58,705 nucleotides of DNA from Rhizaria sp. SCN 62-66 (taxonomy: Eukaryota): positions 1-58,705 of the forward strand of contig MEDY01000179.1 of the NCBI GenBank assembly GCA_001724265.1, written 5' to 3'. The translations under genes and the position numbers were made by a program. Shown piece by piece: positions 22,601 through 53,282 of the stretch. How positions within the stretch are numbered: the first letter of the stretch is position 1; every line of letters begins with the position of its first letter. Under the pieces are notes generated by a model. It ran no database searches and was not told where the DNA came from. It was given only the letters and a program-made list of their open reading frames with translations.

Positions 22601-24428
22601 CCGCGAAAATAGAGTCGTCGATCCACTTCGCAGAAAAGTCACTGCTGTCTAATGTCTCTCCGCGACTCCCGTCATTGCTGCTGCGAGCGCGCTTGTTGCT
22701 TTGCGACGCCTCCACCTTCACCGCGGCAGCAGCTGCAGCTGCAGCGGGCTCTAGGTGACGGTCCTCGGCGCGCTCGTAACCCTCGAGCGTGGCGTCGAGC
22801 GCGGTGTAGAGCAGCTGCGCCGTCGCCAGCAGCGAGGGCGTCGGCGCGGCCGTGTTGCGCGCCAGCGCGACCAGCAGCGACAGCAGGCACTGCAGCGACG
22901 GCACCACGGGCTCCCGCGCCACGACGGCCGCGGCTGGGGGCACGGCGACCGCGGAGGCCGTGAGCGCGACGCGCAGCACGCGGCCCAAGGCGGCCCAGCG
23001 CCGCCCGCCCGCCAGCGCGGCGAGCAGCGCCTCGGTCACGCCCGCGTCGGTCACGGCGTCCGGGTAGGCGCAGAAGGCGGCCGTGGCGTCAGCCAGGCGG
23101 CCGTGGACGAGGTATGCCGCCACCGCGCCCTCGGGCTCGCTCAGCGCGCGCGGCGCCGAGGCCAGCGGGTGCGGCGGCGCCGGCGAGGCAGTCGTGAACA
23201 GCGTCAGCGTGCCGCGGCGAACAAAGCCAGAATCGTTGTCGTTGCGGACGGCAGTTTGTTTCAAGTCACTCCGAGGGCGATTCGCGTGCCGAGGAGGGAA
23301 AAGCACAGAAGATGATAGTATACCAGCAACGCTGTTGTTGTCGCTGCTGCTGTCAGCGCTGATATCGGGCGCGACTCCAGCGGCAGCAAGTTGGGAGTGG
23401 ACGGTCTCGGCCGCAAAGCGCTCGCACAGCAGCACCAGCGGCGCCAGCGGCGACAGGCCAAGAGCCTCAGTCTCCGCGTCTGCCTCAGCCTCAGCCGCAG
23501 CCTCAGCCTCAGCCTCGGCCTCGGCCTCCGCCTTCGCCGCAGCCGCGGCCGCGGTCTCGACAGTGTCACCGCCTGCGCTCCCTGTTGCCTGTGCGGCTTC
23601 CCTGGCTGCGCTGGCCGCCCGGGCCGCTCTGGCGTCGGCGCGCGCGTCCCGGAGAAGCGCCCGCGCGAAGGTGGCGGCGGCGGCGCGCGAGTACACGAGC
23701 GCCTGGATGGCCGGCGAGGGCAGGAACATCCCCGCCAGCCCGGACGCGGCGGCGGACGCGGACGCCGCCGCGGACGACAGGGCCGCTGGCGTGTCGGGCG
23801 AGCTGCCAGTCGAGCTCGCAGAGATTGTGGGGAAGAAGGGCTTGTGCGGGTCCAGCGGAGGCAGCGCGGCAAACGGCGGCGGCACAAACGCGCCGCGGCC
23901 AGTGGACAGCGACGGGGAGCTGTCAATGCCCGCAGTCAGCAAGGGCGCAGGCGCAGACGCAGACGCAGAGGCCTGTGCAGGCGCATGTGCAGGTAAACTG
24001 CCCTGCTCAGCGGCGGTGCGCAGTGGTGCTGAAGAGGCAAAAGCGCGCGTTGAGCCAGCAGCAGCGCTTGCGGCCGCAGCGGCAGTTGCAACATAAGGTA
24101 GAGCTGCAGCTGCGTTCAGAGAGCTTGCGCTGCGACTGTGATAAGAGTAATTGGGAACGAAGCTTTGCGTGGTGGCGCTGCGCACTGCAGTGCGTGTCAG
24201 CGCGGTTGTGCAGGCAGACAGCGTGTGTGCTGTAAGCGCGACGTGCAGAGGCCAAGTGGCAACACCAGACGCCGCAAAAGTCGTCGCACTCCTTGTGCTA
24301 GCGTGGCTGACGCCAGTACTCGCTCGGCTGTGAGAGGTGTCAGCCTGCGAGTGGTGCAGTGAAGAGACGGGTGTGCGCGCCCGAATGTTTCGCAACACGG
24401 TCGCCGCGCGGAAAATCGGGGTGCTCAT
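10614..24428 (-). CDS. Giant intronless 4604-aa low-complexity protein with a mitochondrial-presequence-like N-terminus and scattered PPR-like helical segments
   Basis: 13.8-kb stop-free frame flanked by AT-rich DNA; first ATG at 24428 gives MSTPIFRAATVLRNIRARTPVSS...RAFASSAPLR (Arg/Ser/Thr-rich, acid-poor); TAA stop. Function is inference only. Confidence 0.75.
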   Translation of the reverse strand: MSTPIFRAATVLRNIRARTPVSSLHHSQADTSHSRASTGVSHASTRSATTFAASGVATWPLHVALTAHTLSACTTALTRTAVRSATTQSFVPNYSYHSRSASSLNAAAALPYVATAAAAASAAAGSTRAFASSAPLRTAAEQGSLPAHAPAQASASASAPAPLLTAGIDSSPSLSTGRGAFVPPPFAALPPLDPHKPFFPTISASSTGSSPDTPAALSSAAASASAAASGLAGMFLPSPAIQALVYSRAAAATFARALLRDARADARAARAASAAREAAQATGSAGGDTVETAAAAAAKAEAEAEAEAEAAAEAEADAETEALGLSPLAPLVLLCERFAAETVHSQLAAAGVAPDISADSSSDNNSVAGILSSSVLFPPRHANRPRSDLKQTAVRNDNDSGFVRRGTLTLFTTASPAPPHPLASAPRALSEPEGAVAAYLVHGRLADATAAFCAYPDAVTDAGVTEALLAALAGGRRWAALGRVLRVALTASAVAVPPAAAVVAREPVVPSLQCLLSLLVALARNTAAPTPSLLATAQLLYTALDATLEGYERAEDRHLEPAAAAAAAAVKVEASQSNKRARSSNDGSRGETLDSSDFSAKWIDDSIFAVPFSPLSLTEIGVLRMEAATFYAQACLRLADALSSPATAGLGPVSAPPRPPQHGAQPRTGGSQSPPQAQAQQSQAEFAAGAPGTPAFVADGHTAPTEAKARLTTARYVAGAGAGVASGASPAKDALTQGQFLSSDHLLPSDTFPQTDNSGDSSSNARTSSVWQSSYATSPAAPVSVLPPPSLPYSAAALPVPASALVALARTPAAEAIARHALAVLRRVTDMAVARGASPADPFDCDWTVGLGRGDDDYPYLEKSSRRDTSQTGGPGLRSESAEAPHMTDALPAAALMHGFVADYPLVAAVPRTGNAANTQSQPQPQAQWPLRGHLPATGPDTMYGSRYLAWAHARGLTLGLDGIADREAAVPLLSDTHCAHGTRSRSEPDGQSSPQLGVEGTTVSGGGLALLRLRGGQMGDLTDPAFCEQGPFANALRRVGDTASGRLMPLQPWASGDAAASTASTGSCSMPVPTPVSDSLYDAPSTASNHTNSVSINSSKAGSSIDASNSGINAHSEGCDSTAANNGRASLSRLHPVRPWALHATLPPALLSCRLALHIRLGDHDKVEQFARNTELALRLPPPYTAPPVTQAVAELLFAHAVLTAAEGATTVGRPADPSALQQQHQANNNTRSAGPVRSPNHNVNNCVESLIAHSNPCNDDVDATDTGSRPVPLVPAVGADVTVWELMLSRSRRLNLARERTDMRRRAFEQNILPTRASGSVAEGEWLRRLSHSSLRCSHLGSAALASNNASDDVAQSGYEYAVGAALPTALALLHSTGLQLSHTNLVKTVGFKATRLGKSSFSGTDNDGAPAHSVTESTVNNKSNNKSSTGANASSTSSFNNNKNEHQKPQQNKSSQNYNSATTSPDSARVSGSKQRQQHIQQQSRPAFPGPGSAPVRRLSTETKRPGSATKGDKPATKGGSRPPISDDVVPLAPLVPLGALVPTPPLGSRALPHSPHLLTAPALALAPAPTVCTQPPYPGLSVSSLGSGGGDPSVAALASAAAAQPPVATTVYGATARAPVQLAAAMAAAHGSTAAAAAAVPWWAHAKPGPGATMGEALLAEPHWSTVQPTPMHNASNNSGGSSNHMASQLLLSSHLLAPSPLVEPLSPQGAAAALLYDGYRPDGSAGVAGCSDGAASRHLDSDMVRGTLYDAATAAIRSADEDNNVTFRSNASASAPATVASAEQLFSSLGDYALSSQSPLPLSLFAGALYAHDPRPVSPFSFPPPSALLVPAVPAAAVAEAEAERRTLGRILSSFENVTASSSNSDKTTDSNNENGDFLADAGSGGLFTLSAPPAPWHNHIARVSRLFASVSIALSPAMLHLLRRLCAREGYLEGELRATQLLRLLEHAASKGARRRAEVTSTWASVTGFTEAAAWEAANAEVAANLARNDKASAGNDDSNSSATPVTSAGGSAGESKQGTAPQLPAAALTRGAGAAAAADSEFHCPRALLGWGPLATAPPLPIGVLLAEAYATEAARAEARGGLQQRTTAGIVTASTHVNNGDAELDDAEEEDHEGFEQFFSQMTNYSPQSRWDPYLPVHSHDCAHRGPALSGRLLARLLSRKPPGSASSLTDSQSEFQQPVMRGGGVYRYARGTMTPAKAVTSHTSSAQSPAGAATAVPSRYKYRPFHHAALGPVPSPRSPMLGLVPPAAAVAASAVTAPLALAAQFPAALPVTPLSRVGRRGRGPACGDDEQRAVAESEAVAAGLAAATWAAHGAAAAETATRDAPLLGADRPFAASSNALSGNSGNDFDADIDITSDDSEWREWYHPLAVTQHTAIASALKVATFRARVRKTSAQSKDADTKGELSVGSVAALATSLVETYANGAHSKSKYTTSTTAEGAVLPGQGAFVNATSTVAQSDSARDSSSESVTVTVRTQLHLSSPLARLPPAAQVSRLQRLLDDDEVAAAAAFVKELLMATATVSAVVCASVQPNIAPSSQLSAAAARARGTATALCAVPVPRAVRDVLVHAFAARPLLSRLLAPVVANAGAFAAASAVGAVPALALPPPSPPPGGSHNHGVVLAVTAETGFKALNATLQGSLPPVIAVPAVAAAAAAGKAARATITERTDAADTADTTNDGEHDQKQQQKLLPLRQRIGRGGATAAARAALVAAAAASDGVSRIVPFGAALSHSQSLAAERVAALAASEFPLATVYAGTASHRTGGAGEPGTATVAVASAGGGNNAGNGITLSSSSVTLGSPMLPVGGAGGIVTLPKRARTGPALGSLQWLSPADVCADIRSAHSAMLSSSLRRSRIEVVRDNAAAHSDCSVTLGTASKSSSQLPHSGSALPLATRALMPYLSDPQPALHPLSERERLDLLSIIEDAVLPLLAVRKNTTIASEGESIANFVTLTPPMSWASFPPKRANKNAPGQAESSTASETQSMSSAPVALALSAVPATPTTMSKALARARARPGSIHSDVAGLTKPSVASAATTTTSDHANSSTAVADRTRTDAADVITDNFEDEQVQDQEEGFDHDDPELVADALAQNNSTLPDAKLREHCENRPNIFTRSLLRASGMSAAASRADAAAARCPLPPPGVSVGSASVYSPYITLASEEIAGSGGEAAARAGVQAPSVSVGSNSALHAALLPATAWTPRTQTQRYSALHATTAPPPLQRTNIGGDYDDDHAADVTELLSRLPASAAAHAAALKLQHTTDSSEDANPIRSQRVSNAARLGKEAPVLLFRRRGRPRQRAGAVLAADLALGNIGRGGLAATAASLALWPSSQLPQPRRSDVDTGAAHTSNTRPHAGVTAVVDANCDAALLEPYAAKLRQGPSKGVLTSFSSPATATLALALSQTLQAIEDNITDKASLYNYDFSDNYAGDTNMARAELFSSASRPITSPLPLSRRTFAAAWAAASALQTAPAATLPTEPRAALELARSILTSASVRNSDDHELYWLLCAASAAHETQSSTPSQSPSLCQSQSHALPLLPRARVLSLTDFGDAYSWDLRAPPVGSRFRRALAALGRIHSEMTYSNSNNNHAVSNAADKSDSGAWTRLQLQQVALCAPPPTPHRGPPSAQQLSISVSDAWFAARVAPAQVPWRTTTTALPQPLSTQVSPGSNSHFSDNYDVTNAIDSGAVDEAALLPAQHQVFMPLPLWRRRTVLAVAASSENPRALSPLPPRVRAFAALAVSASTSAQSAASAFPLWDSLTTPFVPPPQHSSQSHHGQQLQIQYHYMMQQQQQQQLQKMQGQGAVAAAAAANATMYASMNAYREDKQQHKQHQKQQHQQFMKQQQPQQEQRDDTSKASDVVTSDAALPPLIAALAPPVLISPPSITATTTALLTATDAAVIFEPAATTTHTQQSGVIASAGDACVRAGHGVMSESKLPHVAASVRSSAVSVSPSVYAAFGSVFAALLGVAPVVPRGLLSPVPPAVTLTKTNNDVISRATPHAKSTSFATHALALIPSTTAPSAIVFAGSGALLTAVESYRAQIKDVARRSRAATSAVAAIAAVVSTNSVDFCSSSPQENTSSRFLRSIRFDAPSVSAQPFQPGPNGGGGGTNASQSRSRARSRLAVGPAVYAATVHSAVRAAAAAEIAYARSTLPRGVPAAVSSALLPQRKAIFSAQALDGLWSTLRLPLLAHPSMRTLVHPQVLAGEGWPSAARPALNNGGASTQGATGADMSTNAARVSAREVEVAVARLALRVYANVLESGGQYLSYPLPADHRNNDRVEDTQPHTQELEHSHTSACLHGGVPLRMAAINLTEPLPAPASQHMTTSNTGDDSREKSGTVIGFAAAPTAFSLVPSLNALSVSSKDLSAAKLRARAIERDTSSSGTSPVSSAENATMMYKAGVAEMTAFTPALSQSDATSSENYMHQNSSLLQSLSLSERTPLWLLDCALSDVAPGLLAHTHPLLLTVHNPIPGDNTDAENLRVSVDSDSLWSRALTLAALHTPDTNMAHSAMNRAVTHDTFFEQQSQTQTSLNSVTLPSAPLTPRLRLATHSRGEDDGISHADVQGYESARVIVRRHIAAANRPWRHSKMFDSAWFA

Positions 24429-24734
24429 GCCCAAACACTCCGGTGGACAGAGCCACGCTGTGGAGTAGTGAGGATAAAAAGGGGGGCTTCGGGACGGAGA
24501 CGAGGGTCGGTAAGACCGGGCCAAAGAGTGTGCTGTAGGAAAATAAAACAAACAGCGCGGGGGTTAATCGCACACTGAAGAAATATAAAAAGAGTAACAA
24601 TAATTTGGACGTTAGGGTAGTTGTAGCGCGTGGGGTGTAGCAAAAATGACGATAAGAAGCTTGAGCATTTCAGTGCCGGAATTCAGTGCTGTCCGCGCAC
24701 ACCGGGCCAGTCCTCGTCCACTACTGCAGGTGGG

Positions 24735-25178
24735 TCAGGATCCATGTTTGGTGGGCGATCTCGAAGCACGCGCTCTTAGCGCCCATCGTCATTGTGGGGC
24801 GTCTCGACTCTGCGCGTTTTCAGTAGGTCCTCAAGAAGGGTCTCCTGCCGCTTATCTTCCCGGACCAGATCTTTCAGCAAGACAACACGCCGGTGCACGT
24901 TTCTAGCTCCACCCTCGAGTACCTGGGCGAGAGGGACGTCCCTCTGCTTGAGGGCTGGCCCCCGCAGCCGCTCGACCTGAGCCCCACTAAGCATGCGTGG
25001 ACTCAAGCACAGTGCAAGGTCCACGCGCGTCAACCTGCAAACGCTGAGCAGCTCAAGCGGATCACCCTTCATGTCCTCAAACGAGTTCCTGCAGGACATC
25101 ATCAACACCCTCATCGACAACGTGTCGAACACTTTCGGAAGGTTATTGCAAAGCAATGGCACTACATTGGGCATTTAA
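24735..25178 (+). mobile_element. Degenerate Tc1/mariner (DDE_3-type) transposase fragment
   Basis: Frameshifted pieces IHVWWAISKH, IFQQDNTPVH, LLEGWPPQPLDLSPTKHAW and QDIINTLIDNV match the Tc1 motifs MVWG.IS, FQQDNAP.H and WP.QSPDLNPIE..W. Third catalytic Glu is lost, N-terminal half absent, no clear TIR pair. Confidence 0.8.
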
Positions 25179-26454
25179 GTTTGTTTGATAATACATATGT
25201 TTTTTATAAATATTATATTCAAGTGTTATTCAAATCGCAATTAATCTGTGAGCTTACGGAGCAAGACAGGAAATTTTCGACTCGTTGGCTGTGTGTTCTG
25301 AAAAAATGCAGGCAGAAGTGGCGGGTGCCACAAAAGGCCGACATGGCTTTCGACAAGCACTCTTGTCGCTGTGTTGTGTTCGCAAAACAAGCATTCGCGT
25401 TCATGTACGGAAAGGCTTTTACTACAGACGAATACTATTGGTACGTCTCTACGTTGATTTCATTCTAGTAAATCCCACCAGGCGATTGCGCATGAGCTGG
25501 CACGTACACGGCGCAAGCTAACGGACGCTTTTATCTACCACCGCGAGAGCCGTATGAACTGGATCAACACAAAAGTTTTGCCTCAGTTGTACTTACCATC
25601 ATATTCAGTCAAACTTTAGCCCAATGCAAATGTTGATGGCGCATTCGAGGAGCGCCAACCAAGATAACAACGGTTGTCGCACTCAATAAGTCGAGGGAAT
25701 TCCAAATGTCACGGAGCTATTAAGCCGCGACTGCAAATATCAGGAATGGGGGGGATACAATTTGGCAATGCTATGTAATGGAAAAACATTAAAGAGAAGT
25801 AAACTTGGAAGTAAAATGTACCATATGATAGAGACAACTCCATGGGACGGGATATCGCGACGGCAAGCTGGAACATATTGTTATACGAAGATGATAATTA
25901 ACAAGATTGATCAAGGGGTGTGTGGAAGAATTATCATAGTTATCATTACCTGTGGGCAGTATTTGTCTTGAAATTGAGCGAACAATAAATACAAAGACGA
26001 CCAAAGATGTTAAGACAACACATGTCAGATCTTGAAGATACAAATTCAAGATTGTATGCGTATTTACACCATCAAAACAGCTCAGAACTAACTGTACCGG
26101 CAAACATAGACAGAAAACTCACAAAATACACAAATCTCACAATGAAAGACACACGAAGACTAGCTAACAAAGTAAATAGCATGACTTTGCACACAGGACT
26201 TTTGCATCATTGTAAGAGCACTCAGTTCGGAATTGTCACCAGTGATGATAAAATTTAAAATATATCAAGATGAATTGATATCATGTGTGTATTTACACTA
26301 TTTTGCGAAACTATGTAAGCGTAAAGCTATCGGAGTCCACCTCTCATATCTCAATCTCAAGCGGACCGAGCGGACGGCGGCCCCAGGCACACAGTAAAGC
26401 CTCCAAGGACAGTCCAGTGCACAAATACCGTCTCTTGAATCGGCATCCAAGCGT

Positions 26455-33300: not shown

Positions 33301-35422
33301 CGGGCTCGCTTAAGCCGCAACTTCTCGTTGCGGTACGCGCGCGCCAGAGGCTGCGGCAGTCGCGCTGCAATCGCACACAGAAACCCGCAACTGCAGTTGT
33401 GATACTGGTGCTGTGGCGGTTGAAGTTGGGTTATTTGTTGCTCTAGCTGCTGCAGTAAGGGAAGTGGTGGGCCGCAGTCAAGCCGAGACCTCTTGACGTC
33501 TCCACTCGCACTCACCCCGTCATTGTCGCAACTCGCACTGATATTGCTGTTGATGTGCTCTGTCCCGGTGGCAATAGCAATGGTGCCCGGCTCATGCTTC
33601 ACCGTAATCTTGCTAATGCGGCGAGCGCCTACAGCGACGAGGATTTCACACTCGGAGTCTGAGTCAGAATCCAGGTCCGGGTCGAAATCATGCGCGCGGG
33701 TCTTGCTCTTGCCGCCTGTTCGGGCACTCGCACTCGATGAATTGTGGGAATCGCTGAAACTACGTTTGTTTCGTTTATCAGCGTCCACCCTTTGCCGCTC
33801 TTGCAGCTTCTCTTCGCAGTGGCAGTCTCGTCGCACACAGCACGTCAGCTCAACCCCGCAGTACGTGACCGTGGGCAACACCTCCATCATCTCGATTGAT
33901 GCCCCGGCGGCCCCTGTAGCCACGGCAGCGGAACCGCCGGACTTGGCCAAACCACCGGCTCCGAGAGCCCCGGCGGCCCCCGTGTTGCTTTGGAGCAGCG
34001 TCCCGAGCGGTACGTCAACGCTCCCGCTCTCGGCGGCGACGCAGCGCGTAACCTTGCCCCGCAGCGCGCGGACGTCAGCGCGCAGCGCAGCCGTGGTGGG
34101 CGTGAGCGACTGTGCGGCCCAGAGGCGCGGGCACGCGCCGGGGGCCCAGCGCGCGGGGGCCGGCGGACGCGCGGCGTCGTACAGCGTGCTCCGCAGGATG
34201 AAGTGCGCCAAGTGCGCGGCCAGGGGAGAGAATCTGTCCGCTCCGTGGCGCGCATCACCGGGGTGGGCGCTCGGAGCGGCTGAGTCAGACTTGCAACAGA
34301 AGCACGAGCACGCGCGGCGGGGGCCAGTGATGGCGTGCGCTTGCAGAGCGGGTATCGTGCTCGCAAGCTGGCGCGTCTCCGTAGTTGCCTCTGTGACAAC
34401 CCGCTGTGCCTGGGAGAAGCAATTCATGTTGTGAGCAGTATAGGTCGAGACTGCGCCGGCCGCCTCGCTTAGCAGCTGCTCAGTGTGCGCAATGCGATGT
34501 GCGGAAGCGGAAGAGTCCGACAGGCGGTGGTGAGCGCGAACACGCTCGCGCTCGAGCTTTGCTTCCGCCTAGGCATTGGCGTTCTGGCCAAAAACAAGCA
34601 AAAGCACAAACAAAGGCAAATTAAAAGAGTATGAGAGACTTAAAAAAGAAGCAAGAAACAAAAGAGCAAGAATTGTCCTTTATCCATAAAGAGTACCTTA
34701 ACATCTGTCTCAAACGCTTGGAGGTCCTCTCCTAGCGCAACCACAGCGTTGGTCAGCACGGTAAGCACGCGCATAACGTCACGCGGACACAAGCGGTGGC
34801 CGGGCTGGTCCGGACCGCTGCCCTTGGCCGGGAAGCAGCCGTGCGAGGCCGGCGCGCCGCAGTCGCGGCAATGCACGGCCAGCGGGGCCGCAAACCATTC
34901 GGCGTGCTCGGGACAGCACGGCGTCACGGGCACTGGAGTCGGCGCCGCAGCCGAGGCCGCAGCCGTTGGTGCGGGAGTCGCCAGCAGCCGCGCGGGCGCC
35001 GCAACCGATGCAGCAGCCGGTGTCGCAGCTGGTGCCGCGGCCGGCGCCGCGACCCGAGCCGCTGCCGGAGCCGTAGCCCGCGTCGCAGTACCAGCTCCAG
35101 TGGCAAGACTCGCAGCGGCTCGTGGGGTCGTCTTTGCAGCAGGCGTTGTGGCGGTGTTGTTGCGACTCGCGTTATTCGGGTTAGCAGGACTCGCAGAGGC
35201 TGCGACAGGAACGGGATGAAACTTGAATCGCTTGTTATTCGAGGTTTGGACCGCAACCCAATCGCGGCGGGCTGCGTGTGCATTGTTTGCAGCCGCAGTT
35301 TTCGGCGTGCTGGCACGAGCAGTTGACGGCGTTGATGTCGGATGAGGCCCTTGTCGTGATACACTCCCGCTGTCCGCAGGAAACCTTGACTTCAACTGGG
35401 TTTTTTGCCATGATGAGCTCAT
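30312..35422 (-). CDS. Hypothetical ~1665-aa Ser/Ala/Gln-rich protein with a Cys/His cluster (PHD-like fragment); exons 35422-34697, 34583-30312; in-frame TAG at 34571-34569
   Basis: Phase-0 intron 34696-34584 (GTACTC...pyrimidine tract...GCCAG) joins ORF 35422-34640 to the frame of ORF 34427-30312. Probable 5'UTR intron 35574-35425 (GTACGT...TTGCAG). TAA stop. Confidence 0.65.
31264..31329. repeat. (GAGCTG)11 coding microsatellite giving a poly-Ser tract on the minus strand
   Basis: Directly visible perfect hexamer array. Confidence 0.92.
34569..34571 (-). other. In-frame TAG (candidate sense codon, or alternative 3' splice site)
   Basis: After the strong acceptor at 34584 the frame reads AAC GCC AAT GCC TAG GCG GAA GCA AAG and stays open for more than 1400 codons. 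Confidence 0.6.
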
Positions 35423-36458: not shown

Positions 36459-39400
36459 TCAGCAGCGCTCGAAGGCCTTGTACATCTGCCGCAGGTCTGC
36501 CACGAGGACGGCGCGGCCCGCGGCAGCGTCCTCAGCCGTGACAACACAGCCCGTGGCCCGCAGCGCCGGCACCACGCAGTCGCGCACCACGGCCTCCGCG
36601 CACGCCGCCAGCGCCGATGCCCCCAGCGATGATGCCAGCGCTGATCCGGCGGCGATGTCGCGGTCGGAGTCGTGCTTGGCTTCGCTCTCACCTGCAGCCT
36701 CGCCGCCGCGGGCCGCACTGTCACAGTTCTGCTGCTGCTGCGGCATGGGCAGCAGGGGCACGACGAAACTCGCGTCGCTGTAGCGGTGGTAGCGCGCGAG
36801 CGCGGCGATGACGAGCGCCAGACAGCGCTGCTCGCGCGCGTAGTCCGCGCACAGCCCCAGCGCCAGTAGCAGCCGCGGCAGCGCCGGCAGCGGCGGCGGA
36901 AACCGCGGGTGCAGGTGCGGCACCGTCAGCAGCCGCAGCCCGCGCCACGCATAGCTTGCGCGCCGCGTGTTGGCGCGCGCCTCGAGCCCGAACGTTAGGG
37001 AGAAAAGATCGGCCAGCATCGGCGCGTTGGCGAGCAGCGCCAGGCAGCCCGCGTCCGCCGCCGCCGCGCTCACTGCGCGCAGCAGCGGGCACACGGCGCG
37101 GTCGCCGTCGCGGCGGTGGTTAAGGCTGTCACTTTGAGGGAGACAGTGACAGAGCCAGCCGAAGCCAGCCGTGCTCTCGCTCTCGCCCTCGCTCGCACGA
37201 GCACCGCCGCTGCGGTCGGCAGGGCCGCTGGGCGCGTTGCTGAGCGGCACAGCCAGAGCGGCAAGTGCGGCGGGCAGCGGCCGGCGCAGGGGCCACGGGC
37301 CGCAGTAGGACGAGTCCTCCGCCGCGGCCAGGTGACCGTGGGCAGCCTCCGCGCGGCCGCGAGCAGCCTCGGCCGCCACAGAGGCGGAGAACAGCCGCGT
37401 CCGCTGCGCAATCCAGTGCCGGGCGCACAGCGCGGCCACCACCGCGGCCGCCGCGGTCGGCGCAGGCAGAGGCTCATTCGCACTCGCACTCGAAGAACTG
37501 TCACCGGCGTTGCTGCTGACCGCGTCCACCGCGTCCAACGGAGGCACCACGGGCGCCATCGCAGTGCTGAGCGCCGCAGGGCCGGCGCTGTGGCTGTGGC
37601 TGGTGGCGGCGGACGAGGCCAGGGCCGAGATAAACACAGGCACGGCCGCGGCGGCCCCGTAGGCTGCGGCCACGGCAGCGTCGGCAGCAGCCGTCGCCGC
37701 TGCTGTCGACGACTCGCGTTCACCGCCATCGTCGCTGGCGAGATCAGCCGTGGCAGGAGCGCTGGCGCTGGCGTCGCCAGGGAGCTTCACGAGGCCGAGC
37801 ACGAGCGACAGCACGAGGGTTAGCACGCGCGGCGCCCCTGCCTCCTTGCTATTGAGCGCGGCGGCCATCGTGGCGCCCACAGCGGCGGCCTCGCCGTCCG
37901 CGTTGCCGGCCACCGAGGCCACGGCGGCCGCCGCGGTGATGGCGGCTGGCGCGGCGGCGGCGGCGGCGGCCAGCGCGGCGGTCGCGGCAGCCAGCGCGCC
38001 GTGCACCCAGCCGCTCACGACGGCTACGCCGCCGCAGCCGCCGTCAGCGCCGCGCAGCAGCACGGCGCTCGGGCCGGCAGGGCGGAGCTGTTGTTGCTGC
38101 TGTCGAAACGGGGGCAGCATGGCCGCGAGCAGAAGCGGCCGCACGGCCACTCCAGCGTCAGTGCCGACAACGGCCACAGCGCCGCCCGCAGTGCTCTTGC
38201 GACTCGCAGGAGAGCTTGCGCTCGCACTTGGGCAAGCGCCAGTGACAGCGGCTGCGGCGGCAGCGGCGGCGGCGGCCACGGCAGCCGCACTGCTGCTGCT
38301 CCTGCTGCCTATGCCGACCGCGCTCACGTCCACCGCATCGCTGTCGCTGCCGTTCCCGTCGGCGCCGTCGCTGCCTTTGCTCTTGCTGCCCGCGGACGCG
38401 TCCACGCGAGCCGCGAGCCAAAGGCGCGGGAGGTTGCCGACGCGCAGGAGCAGCTGCTGCTGCGCCCAGCGCTCGGTGACGTCGGGCAGCGCGAGCAGCA
38501 GCAGCGCCGTGCCGCGCTGCACGAGCGCGAGCCCGCGCGCGGGCAGCCCCACGAACACGGCGCCCGCCAGGGTTACGCCGCCGGCCGCCTGGAGCGCGGC
38601 CGCCGCAGACGCCAGCGCCGCAGACGCGCCCGCAGCCGCGTCCGCACAAGCGTTGTCTGCGCCGTCGCTGTGGACCGCGCTGTGGGCCGCGCTGGCGTCG
38701 AGCGGGGGCAGGCCGGCGGCGCGGCGCAGCGTCTGCAGCGAGCGCAGCGCAAGCGGCGCCCACGCGCGGGGCTCCTGCAGCGCCGCAGCCATCTGCCGCG
38801 ACCACTGCGGCGACCACGCGGACTGCGACTCCGACTCTGACTGTGATTGAGCGGGCGCGGAAAGGGGCTGAGCGCGAAAGGGCTCCGCAACCGTCGCCAC
38901 AGAGGCAGTCGCGGCAGCACTGGCGCTGCCGCTGCCACCGCCCGCGCTGCTACCGCTGTCGCGGCTGCCGATCTCGCGGTGTTTGCTGACGCGGTCCTTG
39001 CCGGCCGCCGGCGCCGCCTCGTCCTCGTCGTCGTCGGCGCCGTCGCCGTCGCCGGTGTCGGCGTAGCGGCCGCCCGCAGCGGCACCGGCGCCGGCGCCGG
39101 CAGCGGGATAACCGCGAGCAGAGGGGGCGCCCTGGCTCTGGCTCCGGCTTTGATTCAGCGTGTCGGGGTGACTCTGGCTACTCGCGAGGTCGACCGCAGC
39201 CCCACTATCATTCGCACTGCGGCTGAAGCTGCTGCCGCTGCCGCTGCTCTTGGCGCTGCTTGCGGGCGCCTTGCGGGTGAGAAAACCCATGAGCGAGGAC
39301 TGCGACGCGTCCGTACGGACCGTCACACTGTCGTTACGCGCCGCGGCAGCGGCAGGCGCGGCCGCAACACCTGCACCAACACTCCCGCCAACACTGGCCC

Positions 39401-41939
39401 TGGCACTGACGTTAGGAGGTGAGGCGGCGTCAGCGCCGCCGGCAGCGGTGCGAGAGCGTTTGACGCGAGCCCTGCCCTCGCTTTCGGCCTCCTCCTCCTC
39501 CTCCTCCTCCTCCTCCTCCAGGCCCCGACGTGACCGCGACTGCCCTAGCGCAGCAGCAGCGTTGTCGTCGTCGTCGTTGTTGTCGCCGTCGTCATTAACA
39601 GCGATGACGGCGCGGCGACTGCTCTTCGCACTGGCGCTGCTGCTGCTACTGCTGCTGTTGCTGCCACTGCTCAGACTCGAGAGCCCCCAGCCGCCCTTAC
39701 TCTTCGCACTCGCATTGCTGCTATGAGCGCCGGCGCCCGGCAGCGCGGCGAGCGCGTCGCCGGCGGGCGGGAGCACGGGCAGCGTGAGCAGCGTCTGCGT
39801 GGCGAAGGTGCGCGAGGCCGCTGTGGCCGCCAGCGCGCGCTCCACCGCCGCCGCCACCGTCGAGATCACCTGCGCGAGGAAAACGAACAATGAAAGAGAG
39901 AATATAATGTGAGTTTACTCAAATACAGGTGCAACCGAGTAATAAAATATGAATTTGATTGCAATATATCCCTGTTTTTTTGTTGACCCCGACGCACCTC
40001 CTCCTGGTGGAGCATCTGAACCTCCTGCTTGGTGGGGTGCACGTTGACGTCGACGGCGCTGCCCGGCAGTGAGAGCGCCAGGAAGACCCAGGGCACGCTC
40101 TTGCGCGGGAGGTGCGCCGCGAAGACGGCCTCGACGGCGCGCTTGAGCGGCCCGCAGCTCACCAGCCGGCTGTTGATGAACAGCACGAAGTTGAGAGACC
40201 CGCTGACTCCCACGCCGCCGCCGCCGCCGCCGCCGCTGCCGCCACCGCCGCTACTGCTGCTGCTGGCGCTACGGGCGGCGCGGGGCGCGGACATAGACGC
40301 CGAGAGCGACGTGCCGCCGCTGACGCCGCTGGTGCCGCCGCTTGCGCTGTGACTGCCGGAGATGTCGCTCGAGTCGCCCGCACCACGCCCGCTGCCGGCG
40401 CCGGGGCCGTGGCTGTAGTTGGGGCTCGAGACCAGCCCGGTCACGGCCAGACCCAGCGCCGCCGCCGTCGCGGCCAGTGCGCCGCCACTCCCACTGTTCC
40501 TGTCGCGACCGCTGCTTTGACTGGGGCTGGGGGCCGGCGAGAGCGTGACGTCGATGAGCTCGCGCGCGAGGGCCGGGCCCCAAACGTGTGCCACCACGGC
40601 GCGGCGCGCGCGGGCGTCCGCCTCGGCCTCTACCGCAGCCGCCGCGGCCTCTGTCGCCGACACCGCGGCCGCTCGAGACCGACCGGAGCGAGAGCCGGAG
40701 TCGTCGGAGTCCGCGCTAGTGCAGTTGTCGCCACCGTTGTCGCTGCCGATGTCGTCGTTGATGTGATGCGCGTCGCCGGCAGCGACAAGCGCGGCCGCCG
40801 TGGCTGCCGCGTTCACGCTGCTCCCGTCACTGCTACTCGCCGAGCTGCTGCTGTTGGCGGCTGCATTCGCGATGCCTGTATTCGCAGCAGCAGCGGCGGC
40901 GCCGGCGGTGGCCAGGTCCGCGCCGGGCGCGCCCTTGCGGCGGAGCACAACGGCGCAGCGAGGGAACATGAGCGCGTACGCGGCGGCGACGTCGAGGCAG
41001 CGCCGGTGCTCCTCGTGCGGTGACCGCAGCGCCGCGCGGCGGGCCGGCACGTTGAAGAAGAAGGACGCCGCCGAGACCGTGGTCCCGAACGGCAGCGCGG
41101 CCGGCCGCGGCGCCGCCGACGAGGCCCACAGCGCCGCGCTGGCTGCCGCCGCGCTTTCCTCGCCGGTCAGCCGCGCCCCCGCCGCAGCGCCAGCGCCTGC
41201 AGTGGCTGCAGTGAGGTTGGGCGGCTGCCACGAGTCGGGGTCGACCAGGCGGCCGTCGGCGAAGGCCGCCGCGTAGCCGTGCGCAGGCACTTCGGGCGCA
41301 CCGCCGGGCACCGCGGGCCGCAGGGCGCGGGCGCGCGTGCGTACGGTCACCCTGGGGACGGGGTGTTCGCAAAGAGAGAGAAAGTCGCCGATATGACATG
41401 TGGTGAGATACGTGTTATTGTTATGACAGCAGAGTGACAGGAGAGCGAATTGGCACAGTGGTGAAATAAGATATACAGAACATAGAATTAACTTGTAACG
41501 CGAAGTTTTGGCGGATATCCTGTGCGTTCCCCGCGTACCTGGCAACGTGCGTGAGCGAGGCGAGCGCCTCCCCGCGGAAGCCAAAGGTGGCGATGCGGCC
41601 GGAGCTGAGGTCCGCGAACGAGCGCAGCTTCGACGTCGCAAAGCGCTCGCACAGCAGCGGCAGGTCCGCGGGCGCGATGCCCGTGCCGTCGTCGGCGATC
41701 TGCATCAGCGCGAGGCCGCCTTCGTGGAGCGTGACGGTGACGCGGGACGCGCGCGCGTCGAGCGCGTTCTCGAGCAGCTCCTTGAGCGCGTTGGCGGGCC
41801 TGTGAATCACCTCGCCCGCCGCGATGCGGTTCACCACGTCCGGTGACAGCCGCTAAATCGGCGCGGGCGGCGCGGCGAACGATGCCGGCACGGGCATGGC
41901 GGCGGTGGACGCAGACACAGATGCGAGCTCGTGAGACAT
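36459..41939 (-). CDS. MLH1: DNA mismatch repair protein MLH1, ~1721 aa with large low-complexity insertions; exons 41939(or 41897)-41539, 41351-39998, 39869-36459; in-frame TAG at 41855-41853
   Basis: [75 protein letters not shown] and the MLH1-specific C-terminus YKAFERC then TGA. Introns 41538-41352 (GTACGC) and 39997-39870 (GTGCGT). Confidence 0.95.
41853..41855 (-). other. In-frame TAG inside the conserved MLH1 N-terminal motif
   Basis: ATG...CCG ATT TAG CGG CTG TCA CCG GAC GTG GTG AAC CGC ATC = [12 protein letters not shown]. Confidence 0.88.
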
Positions 41940-43153
41940 GACCTGTGCGGACACACTTGCGGCTGCACAGCACGCGGTATACTCTGATCGCTAGAGTTGA
42001 CGTGTGACAAGTGCGTGTAAAAACGCGTGTTAAGGGTTACTTGCCGAGGGTTAATTGTAAGAGAGGTGATTATACGGTGGCAGATAGAAGAATGTGAGTT
42101 GGGAGGTGAGCTCGAAATAGCGTCCGCCAGATTGTCAACTAAGTCAGATATTTCACTACAATACATGCGACTTAGAGTATAATAATTTAGGAGTATAACA
42201 AAATGTTCGCGTTAGTACTATTAACGGCAAATATAACGACTGAGAACGGATTATAGTGACGCTATCAGTGGGTTTACAGTGCTTTCGAGAGCGCCATGAT
42301 GCTCGGATTGTTTACGGATTTGGCGCATCGAACAAGGCAAAACGTCATAGAACACATGCATAACGTCTGTCTGTAGATAAACAAAGTGTAGTTACAGCTA
42401 TGCCCGCTCGTTTAAATGAAGAATCTAAGTTATAGTAGACCTTAACCCTGGTCTATGACAAGAAATAGTATCAAAATCGTTTGCCGACGGCTGAAACGGT
42501 CCTAGCTAGACCAGTCGGTGGAGGCCTTCCTCTAAAAATACACAAAACCGATTTTTGTTCGACAGTAAGACGTCGTAAGCGCGCGTCATTTTGGTGGCCA
42601 GGGGTATTGTTGAGTTTTTTAGTATTTTTCTTTTTTTTATTGCGCCACGCTGTGTCTGTTTTGCCCCGCACGCGCCTCCTGTAAGGACCGACGCACCCCA
42701 TCTCTCTTCCACTGCTGGCCCGCGTCCCACTCGCTCGCTGCAGCCGAAATAAGCAGATATAACTGGCTGACAAAGACCCCAGTTTTATTTCTGCCTTTTA
42801 CATCTGGTGTGCTTGCTATAACCATTAGGGAAGTTGTATGATCGAGGTCTCGCTTGTCTTTTCACTCACCCACTCACCCCCTTCTTGTGTCGCTCTTCTC
42901 TCTCGCCCGCCGCTCTCTCCTACATGGCATCTGACGCAGCCGACCGCTTTCCCGCACAGCGCGCACTGGCCCGCGCTCCCCTTGTCCTGACCCGTCCCAG
43001 CGCTGGCTCCCTCCAGGAGTGCCAGTCCCTGCCGGCGCCGACCCGCTGCCGCTGCCGCTGCCGCCGTCAGTGCCGCGTGCGCTGCGCTGTGCCGTGCCAG
43101 TCCTTCCTTCCCTGCTCTCCTGAGCCTCGTCTCGCTGCGGACCCTTGCGCCCG

Positions 43154-47666: not shown

Positions 47667-48292
47667 TGGATACTCTACCTCAGCGAGATAGAACGTCGGC
47701 AACGGTGACGAAACAGAAAATCCTCACCACTTTTACTCCTCGTCAAAGGAGCAACGATTGGACTCAAACCAAAATCACTTCCTTTTTTCGGTCCAGCCAG
47801 GTCAGCCACCAGCGAACGATTTCGATTCAGAAGTGCATGCTCACTTTGAAAGGCGTGTGTGCATTCTATTTTCCGTCTGTGCATTTAATTTCACTCTATG
47901 GTGTTGGAAGTGCTATTTTATAAATGGATATATTGGTAGATTTATAACAGTGTATGGTTGACCACCTCCCTCACTGGGTCTTCGAGCGCCCACTTTTGCA
48001 CTTGCCCGACCTCACATCGACTCACTCTTGTTCGTGTCCTCTGCTCCTGTCCTCCTTCGTTCCTTATAGCACACTTACCAGCTCACTTAGGCGTGCGATA
48101 CGTCGCTGTAATAGTCACTAGAGCGGGCGAACGCCTCTGTAACTCCTCCTGCATCCGCCAGCGTCAGTTGCATTAAGACCCTACCGGCTGACAGCTCGCG
48201 AGAGCACTCGCACTCAACACAACACAGCGCAGCGCAGCTCAGCGCATTTTGGCAAGGTACCAGCAGCCGTTGCTTTTACCCCCGCTCCCGCC

Positions 48293-51200
48293 ATGTCGTA
48301 CGACGAAGGGGAGGGCTTCCCCACCCTCGACGACATCCGCGCGTACGTCCTTGAACTATGCAACACAAAGATTCGCATTTTCTTGTTGCTACACACATAT
48401 TTGGCGCTAACTCAGCGAGACAACTACCCTTAGACTTATCTCTTAATTCGACAAAACCTCACCTAATATTATTTACTTGTATGCCAATTATTTTTCCGTA
48501 TCGCGTATATCCCTCTCGAATTCTCTCTTGGCACCCGCAGCGACGCGATCGAGTTCATCTCGCAGCAGTTCACGACGCCCGAGAGCCTGTGGGCCGTGGG
48601 CTCGGTGCGCCGCTCGTGCGAGCGCCGCCGCGACCAGCTCGCCGCGCTGTTGCGCTCCGCCGTGCGCTCGCACTCCGAGGAGGTGCGCCTGGGCATTGAG
48701 ACCGTCCAGCGCGCCCGCGCCTCGCTTCAGGTACGGACTGAGGGTCGCCTATGATGTCGTTTCGTTTCAAAACAACCCCATCGCATGTTCTCGATAACTC
48801 GCTAATATCTCTTGATATATCACTTCGAACTCACAATACCTCATTTCTCGTTTGTTGTTTGTTGTTTGTTGACTGACTGTGACTGTGTCCCCAGGCGCTG
48901 CGCGGGCAATTCAGCCGCATCGACTCGCTGGCCGCGCGCGCCTCGGCCCTGGTCGGCGTCGGCGCGGCGCCCGGCGCGCAGGCCGTCTCGGTGGCGCACG
49001 ACAACCTGGACGCGTCGACCCGCATGCTCGCGGACATCAAGTCGCTGCGCACCACGGCCGCGGAGCTGCTCGCGCTGCTCGATGACGACGACCACGCAGT
49101 CAAGTTCGTCTACAAGAAGTGCCGCGGGCTCCTCGCGCTGCGCGAGCGCGCGGGCGCGGGCGCGCTGGCCGCCGCGGGCGGCCCGGGCGGTGGCGGCGGC
49201 GGCACCGTCGCGGTCACGTCGTCGCTAACGGCGTCCCTCGACGCGACCTTCTTCGTCGTCTACGAGGTCGTGGCGGAGCTGGAGAACCGGCTGTGGGAGA
49301 ACCTGCGCGACGGGCCGATGCTGGCCGACTCGGAGCCTGCGGTGCTGGTGCGCACCGCGGAAGTCATCGAGATGGACGACCGCTCCGCCACGCCGCTCTT
49401 CATGCCCGGTACGGACAGACGCCTATCACTGCATATACGCGCTTCTTATTTCAATGCGTTTGAACTAAAATTTTGTGAAAATTGTGTATAAAATTTCTTG
49501 ACTAGTAAATTTTTATTGAGTGAACTGTCCGTAATTTCTGTTTGTTTATGTTTATGTTAATCGAAATCTATACTCATTTGCGGCAACTTTTCGTCTTTTG
49601 TCCCCCTGTTTTGCTTTCCTTTCTCCCCGACCCAGGCCACGGCAAAGCCACGGCTGAGGTGTACCAGGCCGCGCACGCGGAGCGCATGCGCCAGGCCGCC
49701 GCCGCCGCCGCCGCCGCCGCCGCTGAGCGCGCCGCCAACTCCTCCTACGGCAAGTCCGGCGGCGGCAGCGGCGGCGGCTACAACTACAGCGCGGGCAGCG
49801 GCTTTGCGCGGCCGCAGCAGGTGCGCGCCTTCGCGTCGATGCGCGAGCGGTGTCTGTACGCGATCGAGATGGCGGTCGCGGCACAGTACCGGCCGCTGAC
49901 GCTGACGCTCGAGGCGCGTGCGGCCGAGAAGGCCGAGGCGGAGGCCCGCGTGCGCGCGCGCAAAGAGGCCGCCGAGCGGCGCGCTCGCGAGGACGCCGAG
50001 GCCGAGGCGCGCCGCGTCAAGGAGGAGGAGGAGGCGCGCGTGCGGCGCGCCGAGGAGGAGAAGGTGGCGGCGCGGCGCGCGCGCGAGGAGGTGGCGGAGC
50101 GGCAGCGCGCGGCCAAGCGGCGCAACAAGGAGCGCGCGCGGCAGGAGCGGGCGGCCGAGCGCGAGCGCAAGCGGGCCTAGAAGGAGCGCAAGCGCGCCGC
50201 CAAGCTGGCCAAGAAGAGCCGCGCCGGCGCCGGGGCGCGGGGGCGCGCGCGCTGGGATGACGACGACGACGACGATGATGACGATGATGATGATGATGAC
50301 GACGACGACGACGAGGAAGACGAGGACGACGAGACTGAGACTGAGTCCGAGACCGAGTCTAAGTCCGAGCTCACGCCCACTGACGAGGACGACGACGAGG
50401 ATGACGACGACGGCAACAACGGTTTCGGCAAGGGCAAGGCCAAGACCATGGCTGGTGCCAAGAAGAAGAGTCCTTGGGGCGACGACAGCGACGATGACGA
50501 CGACGATGGCACCAAGGACGACGACGCTGACGGCAGTGCCAGCGGCGGCGGCGGCGGCGGCTGGGGTGCCAAGAAGGGCGGCGCCAAGGGCGGCGCCAAG
50601 GCGAACCCCTGGGGCAAGAAGAAGGGCCAGGACGCCGTGGTGAACTCCGACGATGAGGACGCCAACGGCAGCGGCAGCGCGCGCGGCCACAGCGACGACG
50701 ACGATGACGACAATGACGGCAGCGACAGAGACGCGGGCAAAGCGGCGGGCGGCTTCGGCAAAGGCAAAGGCGGCTTTGGCAAAGGCAAGGCCAAGGCCAA
50801 GAAGGGCAGCGACGACGACGATGACGACGACAAGAGCGGGGGCGACGACGAGGGCGGCGGCTTCGGCGGCTTCGGCAAGAAGGGCGGCGCCAAGAAGAAG
50901 GCCAAGGGCAGCGACGACGACGGCGACGGCAGCGACAGCGCCAAGGGCGAGGGCAGCGCCGGTGGTAGTGACAGCGACGGCGACGGCGACAACGCCTTCA
51001 CCAAGAAGGGCGCCAAGGGGGGCAAGGCAGCGGGCGCCAAGAAGGACGACTCGGACGCGGACGAGCGCCGCGAGCGCGCCGTGACGCGCGCGCTCGAGGC
51101 CAAGCGCGAGGCCGAGGCGCGTAAGGACCCGATCGTGAAGCTGCTCGAGGAGGTCTCAGTCGTGCTGGAGGACCTCACGCTGGTCGAGAACAAGATGGCG

Positions 51201-53282
51201 CGGTGCTTCCCGCCCGAGTACGAGCTGCCGGCGCACTATGCACGGCTGCACCGCAAGTGGGTGCGCACAGTCGCCATGGTGCATTTCGCGGACCCCAGCA
51301 CGCTCAACAAGGCCAACTCGCTCGAGTGCGTCAAGTTCCTCGAGAAGATGCTCACCGTCACGCGCACCATGGGCGGCGGCCGCGGCGGCAGCGCGGGTGG
51401 CGGCGGCGCCAGCAGCGGGCAGGCGGCGGCAGAGGCGGCGGACGAGGAGTTTTTCGACTCGCTGATGATGCAGGTACTGGAGGTGTATGTGGACCACGCG
51501 CGCGGCACCATCACGTCGCTGGTGACCAACATCCTCGCGCGCCAGGAGGAGGCCAAGGTGCTCGAGGATCACGAAGGCCGCTGCATCACCACCATCCCGC
51601 AGGACCTCTTCACCGTCATGCTGCAGCAGACGGACCTCAACAAGCGCGTCGGGCTGCGCGGCCGCGCTATGTTCCGCTTTGGCACGCTCTTCGTCGACTT
51701 GCTCACCGGCTTCCAGAACACCACCACGACCTTCTGCAACAGCGCGGCACGCCGGCCGGGCGCTGAGGGCGTGCATTTCGGCGCGCGCCTGCTGCCTAAG
51801 CAGCTCAAGGACTTCATCGCCATGGTCAACGACTGCGGCGCACTGGCCGACTCGACCAAGCAGCTCGAGAGCACTGTACTCGCGCTCGTCGAGGACGTCG
51901 CCGGCGGCATGCGCCTCGCCAGCGGCCGCTCGCTCGCAGCCGCTGACGCAGGCTCCGGCGCGGCCGCGGACGGCGCCGGCGGCGCGGCGGGCGCGGGGGC
52001 GGGCAAGAAAGGTGCCACCGCTGCTGCCGGCAAGGGCGGCAAGCCTGACCCCAAGGCCAAGGGCGGCGCGGCGGGCGGCGACGGCAAGGGCGGAGCGAGC
52101 GCTGAGTCGCCGTTCGGCGCGGACGTGAGCCCCGACTCGCCGCTGCTGCTGTCGCACACGCTGCGGCGCTCCTTCGCGGCCTGCGCGGCCGAGTTCGCGA
52201 CGGTGGGGTCGGCCGCGCTGGACGTGGTGGCGATGCTCGCTGTACAGCGCCTGCTGCCGCTGGTCGAGCGCCTCTTCCTGCCCGAGGGCACCATCGCCTC
52301 GGGCGGGCCCGGCGCGGGCGCGGCCATGGCCAAGCTGTCGAACGAGCTGCACTCGCTGCTCGTCGAGATCGACGAGGGCCTCGAGGACGAGGCACGCGTC
52401 GACCTCATCGCGCGCACGCTCGTCGCCGCCGTCGTCGTGCGCTACGTCGCGCGGCTCGGCGAGGCTGCCGTCAAGGGCGGCGGCGTCACCGCGGGGCCTG
52501 CGCTCGCGGACACGATCACCAACGACGCGCAGACGCTGCAGAAGGCACTGGTGCAGTTCGATGACCTGCTGCCGCCCGCGCGCATCAAGGTGTACCTGGA
52601 CAAGCTCTTCGCGCTGCAGGACCTGCTCGAGGCCGACCACGGCTTCATCTCGCTGCACTTCTCCAAGATTTGCGCGGCCTTCCCCGCGCCCGGCGACGTC
52701 ACCACGGTCGTGTCCAACCTGCTCATGCTGCGCACCGACCTCAGCAAGAGTCAGCGCAAGGAGCTGCTCGGCGACCTCAAGCTCCAGATCGAGCTGGCGG
52801 CGCTCGATGCGGGCGCGCCGCCGCCGGCGCCCGCCGCGGCGCCCGCGGATGAGGACGACGACGGCGGGAGCGGCGACAACGACGACGGCTCGAACCGTTC
52901 CGACAACGGCAACGACTCCGCCTCGGGCTCCGACTCGGACCGGCCCAAGAAGGCCAAGGCCGACAAGGGTAAGGGTGGCGCCAAGGCCGCCGCCGCCGCC
53001 GCCGCCGCCGCTGCCACCGCTGCCGTGAACGTGTCTGAGGAGTTCGAGGCTGCGCAGCGCGTGTTGGTGCGGCTGGCGACCCTGCCGACAGCGCAGCTGC
53101 CCGCGGTACCCGGCGATGACGCGTCGCTGGGCATCTGGGGCCGTCTCAAGAACAAGCTCGGCAAGGGCAGCGGCAAGCCCACCGCGCCCGCCGACGGCGC
53201 CGCCGCGGCCACGCCCGCCAAGCCCGCCGCGCCGGCTAAGGACGACGAGCCCGCGGTGGACCTGGCCGACTTCCTCGACTAA
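48293..53282 (+). CDS. SEC6: Exocyst complex component Sec6/EXOC3-like, ~1466 aa; exons 48293-48342, 48541-48730, 48895-49408, 49636-53282; in-frame TAG at 50178-50180
   Basis: N-terminal pattern (F..PESL...QLAALLRSAVRSHSEEVRLGIE), PAVLVRTAEVIE, EDLTLVENKMARCFPPEY, TTIPQDLF, FIAMVND and LLMLRTDLSKSQRK resemble Sec6 from memory. Three GTACG-AG introns keep frame; TAA stop. Confidence 0.82.
50178..50180 (+). other. In-frame TAG within Sec6 exon 4
   Basis: GAG CGC AAG CGG GCC TAG AAG GAG CGC AAG CGC = ERKRA*KERKR; the same frame continues without a stop to 53282. Confidence 0.88.

Follow-up and report, generated by a model that had tools for sequence, protein, structure and literature searches.

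Two in-frame UAG codons, in MLH1 and Sec6, suggest a UAG-only sense code in a probable cercozoan

The window, by which we mean the whole 58,705-nucleotide stretch of DNA analyzed here, is a eukaryotic contig of 58.7 kb with very GC-rich exons (GC3 of 0.8-0.97) and AT-rich introns and spacers. A run look-up placed the sources of this DNA in bioreactor and wastewater metagenomes. Pfam matches identified genes for uS19, a prenyltransferase beta subunit, uS9, a zf-U1 protein and a FYVE-ankyrin protein, as well as for MLH1, a cytochrome-b5-domain protein, Sec6, UBA1 and PGK; several long low-complexity ORFs of the window had no Pfam family match. A single frame on the minus strand (10617-24563) stays open for 4,649 codons, without any of the three stop codons, and is of low complexity, rich in Ala, Ser and Gln. 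The delimited introns are uniform and have lengths of 128-227 nt, with boundaries read from the sequence, and the eight that were measured start with GTRCG and have a GC content of 0.32-0.47 (0.29-0.60 in their last 86 nt). The length of the contig, the 14-kb ORF and the intron sizes are presumably unlike those of a ciliate macronuclear genome. Two of the genes, MLH1 and Sec6, carry an in-frame TAG:

41539..41939, minus strand: MLH1 exon 1, from the ATG at 41939, 133 codons plus 2 nt, GHKL ATPase N-terminus, GC3 0.91
41853..41855, minus strand: in-frame TAG, MLH1 codon 29, with a conserved Ile before it and Arg-Leu after it; unchanged in the contigs of sequencing runs X3, X4 and X5
41352..41538, minus strand: MLH1 intron 1, GTACGC...CCCCAG, 187 nt, GC 0.47
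39998..41351, minus strand: MLH1 exon 2, DNA_mis_repair domain and long low-complexity inserts, 451 codons without stops
39870..39997, minus strand: MLH1 intron 2, GTGCGT...GCGCAG, 128 nt, GC 0.38
36459..39869, minus strand: MLH1 exon 3, 1136 codons, Mlh1_C domain, ending in YKAFERC and a TGA at 36461-36459
48293..53282, plus strand: Sec6 gene, exons 48293-48342, 48541-48730, 48895-49408 and 49636-53279, then TAA
50178..50180, plus strand: second in-frame TAG, Sec6 (exocyst) exon 4, between RERKRA and KERKRAAK

The three MLH1 exons join in frame and, TAG aside, provide 1,720 codons without a stop. The predicted protein matched human MLH1 (PDB 4p7a) with a phmmer E-value of 5.3e-37. Its N-terminus carries the E-x-x-x-N-x-x-D motif and matched the Pfam families HATPase_c (E 1.2e-9) and HATPase_c_3 (E 5e-9), exon 2 encodes a DNA_mis_repair domain (PF01119, E 1.1e-18), and the Mlh1_C match in exon 3 (PF16413, E 3.3e-19) reaches the end of the profile (264/264) in a protein that terminates in FERC. 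By these matches, the gene is a eukaryotic MLH1 of the MutL family, intact apart from the TAG. It spans 36459-41939 on the minus strand and its 1,721 codons reflect extensive Ala/Ser/Gly-rich insertions that separate the conserved domains. The full-length homologues listed have roughly 630-1,660 residues (the longest 1,664 aa, usually 700-900 aa); the window protein is longer than every one of them and more than twice the usual length. None of the MLH1 relatives in either length class was closer than 72%. The gene is also represented by a public protein cluster (P0002; 41825-41845, minus strand), whose sequence starts with MVNRIAAGE at a GTG just past the TAG. Therefore, the N-terminus in P0002 is cut off by a gene caller that applied the standard code.

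On the minus strand, two ATGs (41939-41937 and 41897-41895) lead in frame to CCG ATT TAG (41855-41853) and on through CGG CTG TCA CCG GAC GTG GTG AAC CGC ATC GCG GCG GGC GAG GTG, which confirms the coordinates and reading given in an initial annotation of this DNA. The annotation had also noted that the TAG is followed by no in-frame ATG ahead of the ATPase motifs, and indeed the frame has its next Met at residue 79 (GGLALMQ), beyond the ELLENALDA motif. Its placement of the TAG within a conserved MLH1 motif agrees with the I-x-x-L...VVNRIAAGE context and with the alignment to human MLH1, where VIRRL stands opposite PIxRL of the window (PIQVL in E. coli MutL). We examined the conservation of this motif in a first search with 119 non-self matches, 110 of them matched at the site, and in a set enlarged by a search of longer proteins (239 examined, 227 matched). 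The column that precedes the TAG holds Ile in 109/110 homologues of the first search and in 226/227 of the larger set. All 110 matched homologues of the first search have 3 or more residues ahead of the TAG column, and all 16 of the best related metagenome loci have the I-x-(R/K/Q)-L motif unbroken and downstream of the start. Furthermore, the 84 nt between the ATG at 41939 and the TAG have a GC content of 0.70, with a GC3 of 0.79 in the 28 codons that precede the TAG, as expected from the annotation's description of this stretch as coding-like rather than intron-like. No GTRCG donor is present between 41856 and 42670. Because of the conserved Ile, the position of the homologue starts, the unbroken loci, the base composition and the missing donor, the location of the TAG inside coding sequence, and not at an intron acceptor, is well supported. 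Openness of the frame carries no weight in this conclusion, because 37 TAGs in the six frames of the window are preceded by at least 28 open codons and followed by 100, commonly in wrong frames. The case for a coding TAG is, instead, one of homology and codon-position pattern.

The letters of the MLH1 TAG are the same in contigs from three sequencing runs, one from 2017 (X3) and two from 2025 (X4 and X5). The X3 contig, assembled from DNA in another study, spans 41130-41924 with 0 differences, whereas the X4 DNA contig (41412-42260) comes from a variant strain with 5 differences, none of which affects the TAG. A sequencing error, listed in the initial annotation as a possible refutation, or an assembly error is thus highly improbable; nothing was found in its favor. 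The third contig, 353 nt long (41512-41864), stems from X5, a poly-A RNA library, and is colinear over the TAG, without change or joint. The annotation had proposed RNA across this region as a check; this molecule shows no editing and is unspliced at 41853, but it also contains 27 nt of intron 1. Because of this intron remnant, and of an end only 9 nt past the TAG on its upstream side, the contig may be pre-mRNA or DNA carry-over and does not establish a mature transcript. In the same library, depth was zero in bins 42010-42580 and 47720-48290. The coverage rows listed contained no real intron joint; most of the joints and loose ends in the coverage traced to low-complexity, GC-rich sequence that matched other organisms, and we left them out.

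The second TAG (50178-50180) lies in exon 4 of Sec6, which is preceded by three canonical introns. The 60 codons around it have a GC3 of 0.98, with G or C at the end of 59/60, and it falls within a low-complexity insert. Upstream of the TAG, exon 3 matches N-terminal residues 30-300 of proteins with 692-1,089 aa, and the Pfam Sec6 domain was found further downstream in 11/11 tested proteins that match this exon. In the window, the Sec6 domain (Pfam) is located after the TAG. Further, BLAST alignments with the homologue P0367, which has counterparts of both parts in one protein, revealed a charged segment, an acidic patch and the Sec6 core in the order of the window, the core alignments being the only significant ones. 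Because the exon 3 matches, the 11/11 Sec6 domains, the position of the domain after the TAG and P0367 all link these parts, they form one gene. In this arrangement, the second TAG interrupts a single conserved Sec6 gene.

Both TAGs follow a pyrimidine and hence resemble YAG acceptors, so we considered whether splicing removes them, the MLH1 site (TTTAG/CGG) as an acceptor to an upstream mini-exon or leader donor and the Sec6 site (CCTAG/AAG) as the acceptor of an in-frame GC-rich intron. Real introns of the window do use such ends: TTTAG is the acceptor of a UBA1 intron, and TAG that of intron 4865-5005. Donors can also be proposed. An ATG at 42701, followed by GTGCGG as a donor at 42671, could be spliced in frame to CGG CTG (41852), and a GTGCGG at 50040 would delimit a 141-nt in-frame Sec6 intron of typical length; the homologue P0019 also seems to carry an intron just before its equivalent ...ALSEDVVN. 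However, GTGCG is frequent by chance as Val-Arg codons in GC-rich coding sequence, and the donor at 42671 would generate an intron of 819 nt that includes a GC-rich leader and replaces the Ile with Arg, which we rate as unlikely. The supposed introns have a GC content of 0.70 (MLH1, last 84 nt) and ~0.8 (Sec6), compared to 0.32-0.47 in the eight real introns, and an in-frame GC3 of 0.79-0.98. Any such MLH1 product would lack the Ile of 226/227 homologues, a loss already pointed out in the initial annotation for a TTTAG acceptor. Moreover, ATH triplets are scarce (2.1% across the window, 0.8% where it is GC-rich), and the ATT in frame right before the TAG would be a 1-2% coincidence. All 16 of the best related loci, unbroken at the MLH1 site, and more weakly the X5 contig, unspliced at 41853, also speak against a splice junction. 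Splicing at both sites is, in our estimate, rather unlikely.

Across the 25 sense-frame segments of the window, which total 15,421 codons, we counted 2 TAG, 0 TAA and 0 TGA codons, and no frameshift was found in these frames. The frequency of in-frame UAG is ~0.13 per 1,000 codons, or ~1 per 7,700 codons. The 14 gene ends, a small sample in which several rest solely on where the ORF stops and an AT-rich spacer follows, use TAA (8) and TGA (6) but never TAG (0), in a window where ~90% of sense codons have G or C in third position. Taken alone, the TAG-free gene ends are weak evidence. TAA is the commonest terminator (8/14) despite a GC3 of ~0.9. Other TAGs were not counted. A third candidate (34568-34566, minus strand) is in frame if the first acceptor of intron 34566-34703 (minus strand) is used and is otherwise the acceptor itself; this intron has a donor outside the GTRCG pattern (GTACTC) and two in-frame acceptors (CAG and TAG) that are 15 nt apart. 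Another TAG is at residue 54 of a Tc1/mariner-like remnant (24665-25468, plus strand; Pfam DDE_3, E 6e-4, below the cut-off), an element that is truncated and looks decayed. We also set aside the TAGs with coding-like flanks at 9083 and 49262 (minus strand) and at 22537, 24536 and 33183 (plus strand), four of which are on the strand opposite a gene; the one at 24536 is at the upstream edge of the giant ORF, beside the transposase remnant.

The rarity of the in-frame TAG, with 2 in 15,421 codons, would also suit a standard code with UAG readthrough at both sites, or a dual UAG whose meaning depends on context, so that full-length MLH1 and Sec6 are made at some efficiency. Ambiguous stop/sense codes have been reported in some eukaryotes, and the window contains no cognate tRNA that we could find. 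Yet neither TAG is followed by unusual RNA structure (z-scores of -1.40 and -0.14 against shuffled sequences), and the downstream contexts are unlike each other (TAG CGG CTG versus TAG AAG GAG). Readthrough would, in addition, have to operate at codon 181 of Sec6 exon 4 in an organism in which TAG ends 0/14 of the genes examined. For these reasons, we consider readthrough unlikely. The standard code could also be retained if both TAGs were nonsense mutations in null or heterozygous alleles, with the loss of MLH1 giving rise to a mutator lineage. A single step separates CAG, AAG, GAG and TTG from TAG, and three of these codons are plentiful in the window (CAG 438, AAG 387 and GAG 575, versus 92 TTG codons); MLH1 is dispensable in many organisms, and a second allele can hide in contig data. 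Against this, nonsense mutations would have struck 2 of ~14 genes, one of them encoding the exocyst subunit Sec6, while leaving the remainder of MLH1 and Sec6 intact, with a strong codon bias, and all sense frames free of in-frame TAA, TGA or frameshifts. Furthermore, the MLH1 TAG is common to the 2017 (X3) and 2025 (X4, X5) runs, including the strain with 5 nearby differences. Two nonsense alleles are, accordingly, quite improbable.

Translation of the TAG itself is something we infer, and the two sites leave considerable latitude as to the residue. The initial annotation had restricted the MLH1 position to R, Q or K and had called it the best single site to assign the amino acid. Neither statement held in the alignments, which revealed 9 residue types in the TAG column of 227 homologues (R56 K50 Q42 V18 E16 A15 L13 T9 H8) and a similarly mixed column in 69 related loci (R25 K11 I8 L5 H5 A5 V4 E3 Q3). 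A lengthened TSK...GFRGE spacer is common to the window and four sequences (P0004, L001, P0112 and P0106); the window and the first three share a two-residue insertion before TFGFRGE, and P0106 has a one-residue insertion. Even these spacer-sharing relatives differ in the TAG column, with Q in P0004, L in L001 and R in both P0112 and P0106. L001 (1330-2940; GC 0.66), with its two-residue insertion before TFGFRGE, is the closest MLH1 relative found (72%); it has an unbroken ORF of at least 537 codons, without an in-frame TAG, and a Leu (CTG) at the TAG column. Hence the alignment of MLH1 N-termini that the annotation had recommended upheld the Ile column and the coding context but did not fix the residue at the TAG. 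The MLH1 site would show that something is inserted at the TAG rather than its identity and, because this column is mixed and the Sec6 site falls in a low-complexity insert, the two sites do not converge on one amino acid. Gln, Leu, Lys and Glu all fit both sites, and a single mutation turns a codon for each of them into TAG. For UAG reassignment, Gln has the most precedents and Leu has the cercozoan one.

We used UBA1, whose closest non-self match had 72% identity, to place the source organism. In a maximum-likelihood tree of this one gene, built quickly from 37 sequences, the window fell inside a 14-row clade (SH-aLRT of 99) in which a cercozoan (taxid 136419) is the one named member. Stramenopiles, opisthokonts and Plasmodiophora plus Reticulomyxa lay outside this clade. 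This placement suggests that the organism is probably a cercozoan, which we treat as a lead because it comes from one gene, one quick search and one label. A search of a metagenome contig collection retrieved no contigs of the same organism (best match 72%), and a scan of genome contigs with UBA1 produced a single match, at 52% and unrelated.

The explanation we favor, at a probability of roughly 0.6, is that UAG alone is translated as an amino acid in this uncultured, probable cercozoan, with UAA and UGA kept as stops. This reading follows from a coding TAG in MLH1 that persists in different runs and in a variant strain, another TAG in Sec6 and gene ends without TAG terminators, and thus from two firm TAG sites in one 58.7-kb window. 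In such a code, UAG would be decoded by a tRNA with anticodon CUA, and eRF1 would recognize UAG poorly or not at all. Within the window, ARAGORN predicted 0 tRNA genes, Rfam matched 0 families and no eRF1 gene was found. UAG could have dropped out of use at gene ends before it was captured again as a sense codon, and a very rare sense codon (2 in ~15,400) would be expected soon afterwards. More tentatively, and at somewhat below even odds, the window may represent a previously unreported free-living cercozoan lineage in an early phase of UAG codon capture in an extremely GC3-rich genome. Few eukaryote lineages are reported to have nuclear codes in which UAG alone is a sense codon and, to our knowledge, nearly all of them came to light when UAG was already frequent, with the early steps of reassignment unseen. 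If true, this genome would offer a natural snapshot of the intermediate stage, with UAG gone from gene ends and rare in frame. It would also have practical consequences, as standard gene callers shorten such genes and the metagenome annotation of the organism would be wrong at MLH1 and Sec6.

The window protein is like eukaryotic MLH1 proteins in its GHKL ATPase N-terminus, DNA_mis_repair and Mlh1_C domains and C-terminal FERC, and unlike them in the 1,721 codons of its gene, with their Ala/Ser/Gly-rich inserts, and in the in-frame TAG at codon 29. Among reported codes, the nearest parallel is the rhizarian exLh (Sainouroidea, Cercozoa), described from an insect, in which 384 in-frame UAG codons in 71 genes are read as Leu and the reported terminators are UAA (56) and UGA (15) (Panek et al., 2017; PMC5304391). 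Our literature search returned no rhizarian or cercozoan UAG reassignment beyond that source. As in the published account of exLh, UAG is the only stop codon found in frame in the window, and genes end in UAA or UGA, with UAA commoner. The window organism is probably of the same phylum, by one gene tree, and Leu, the exLh assignment, occupies the MLH1 column in the relative L001. On the other hand, UAG is ~100 times rarer here, with 2 in ~15,400 codons compared to the 384 in 71 genes described for exLh, and the window organism comes from wastewater and bioreactor samples rather than from an insect and has a GC3 of ~0.9. The lineage suggested by the window could be independent of the exLh UAG=Leu code or an early branch of it, alternatives covered by the same tentative reading. 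The reassignment of UAG alone, with UAA still a stop, is also reported for Iotanema spirale (Fornicata), where UAG encodes Gln (PMC5304391), and for phyllopharyngean ciliates (PMC11687900). Gln fits both sites of the window and is present in the MLH1 column of 42/227 homologues, including P0004. However, Iotanema and the phyllopharyngean ciliates belong to unrelated lineages, in which UAG is described as frequent.
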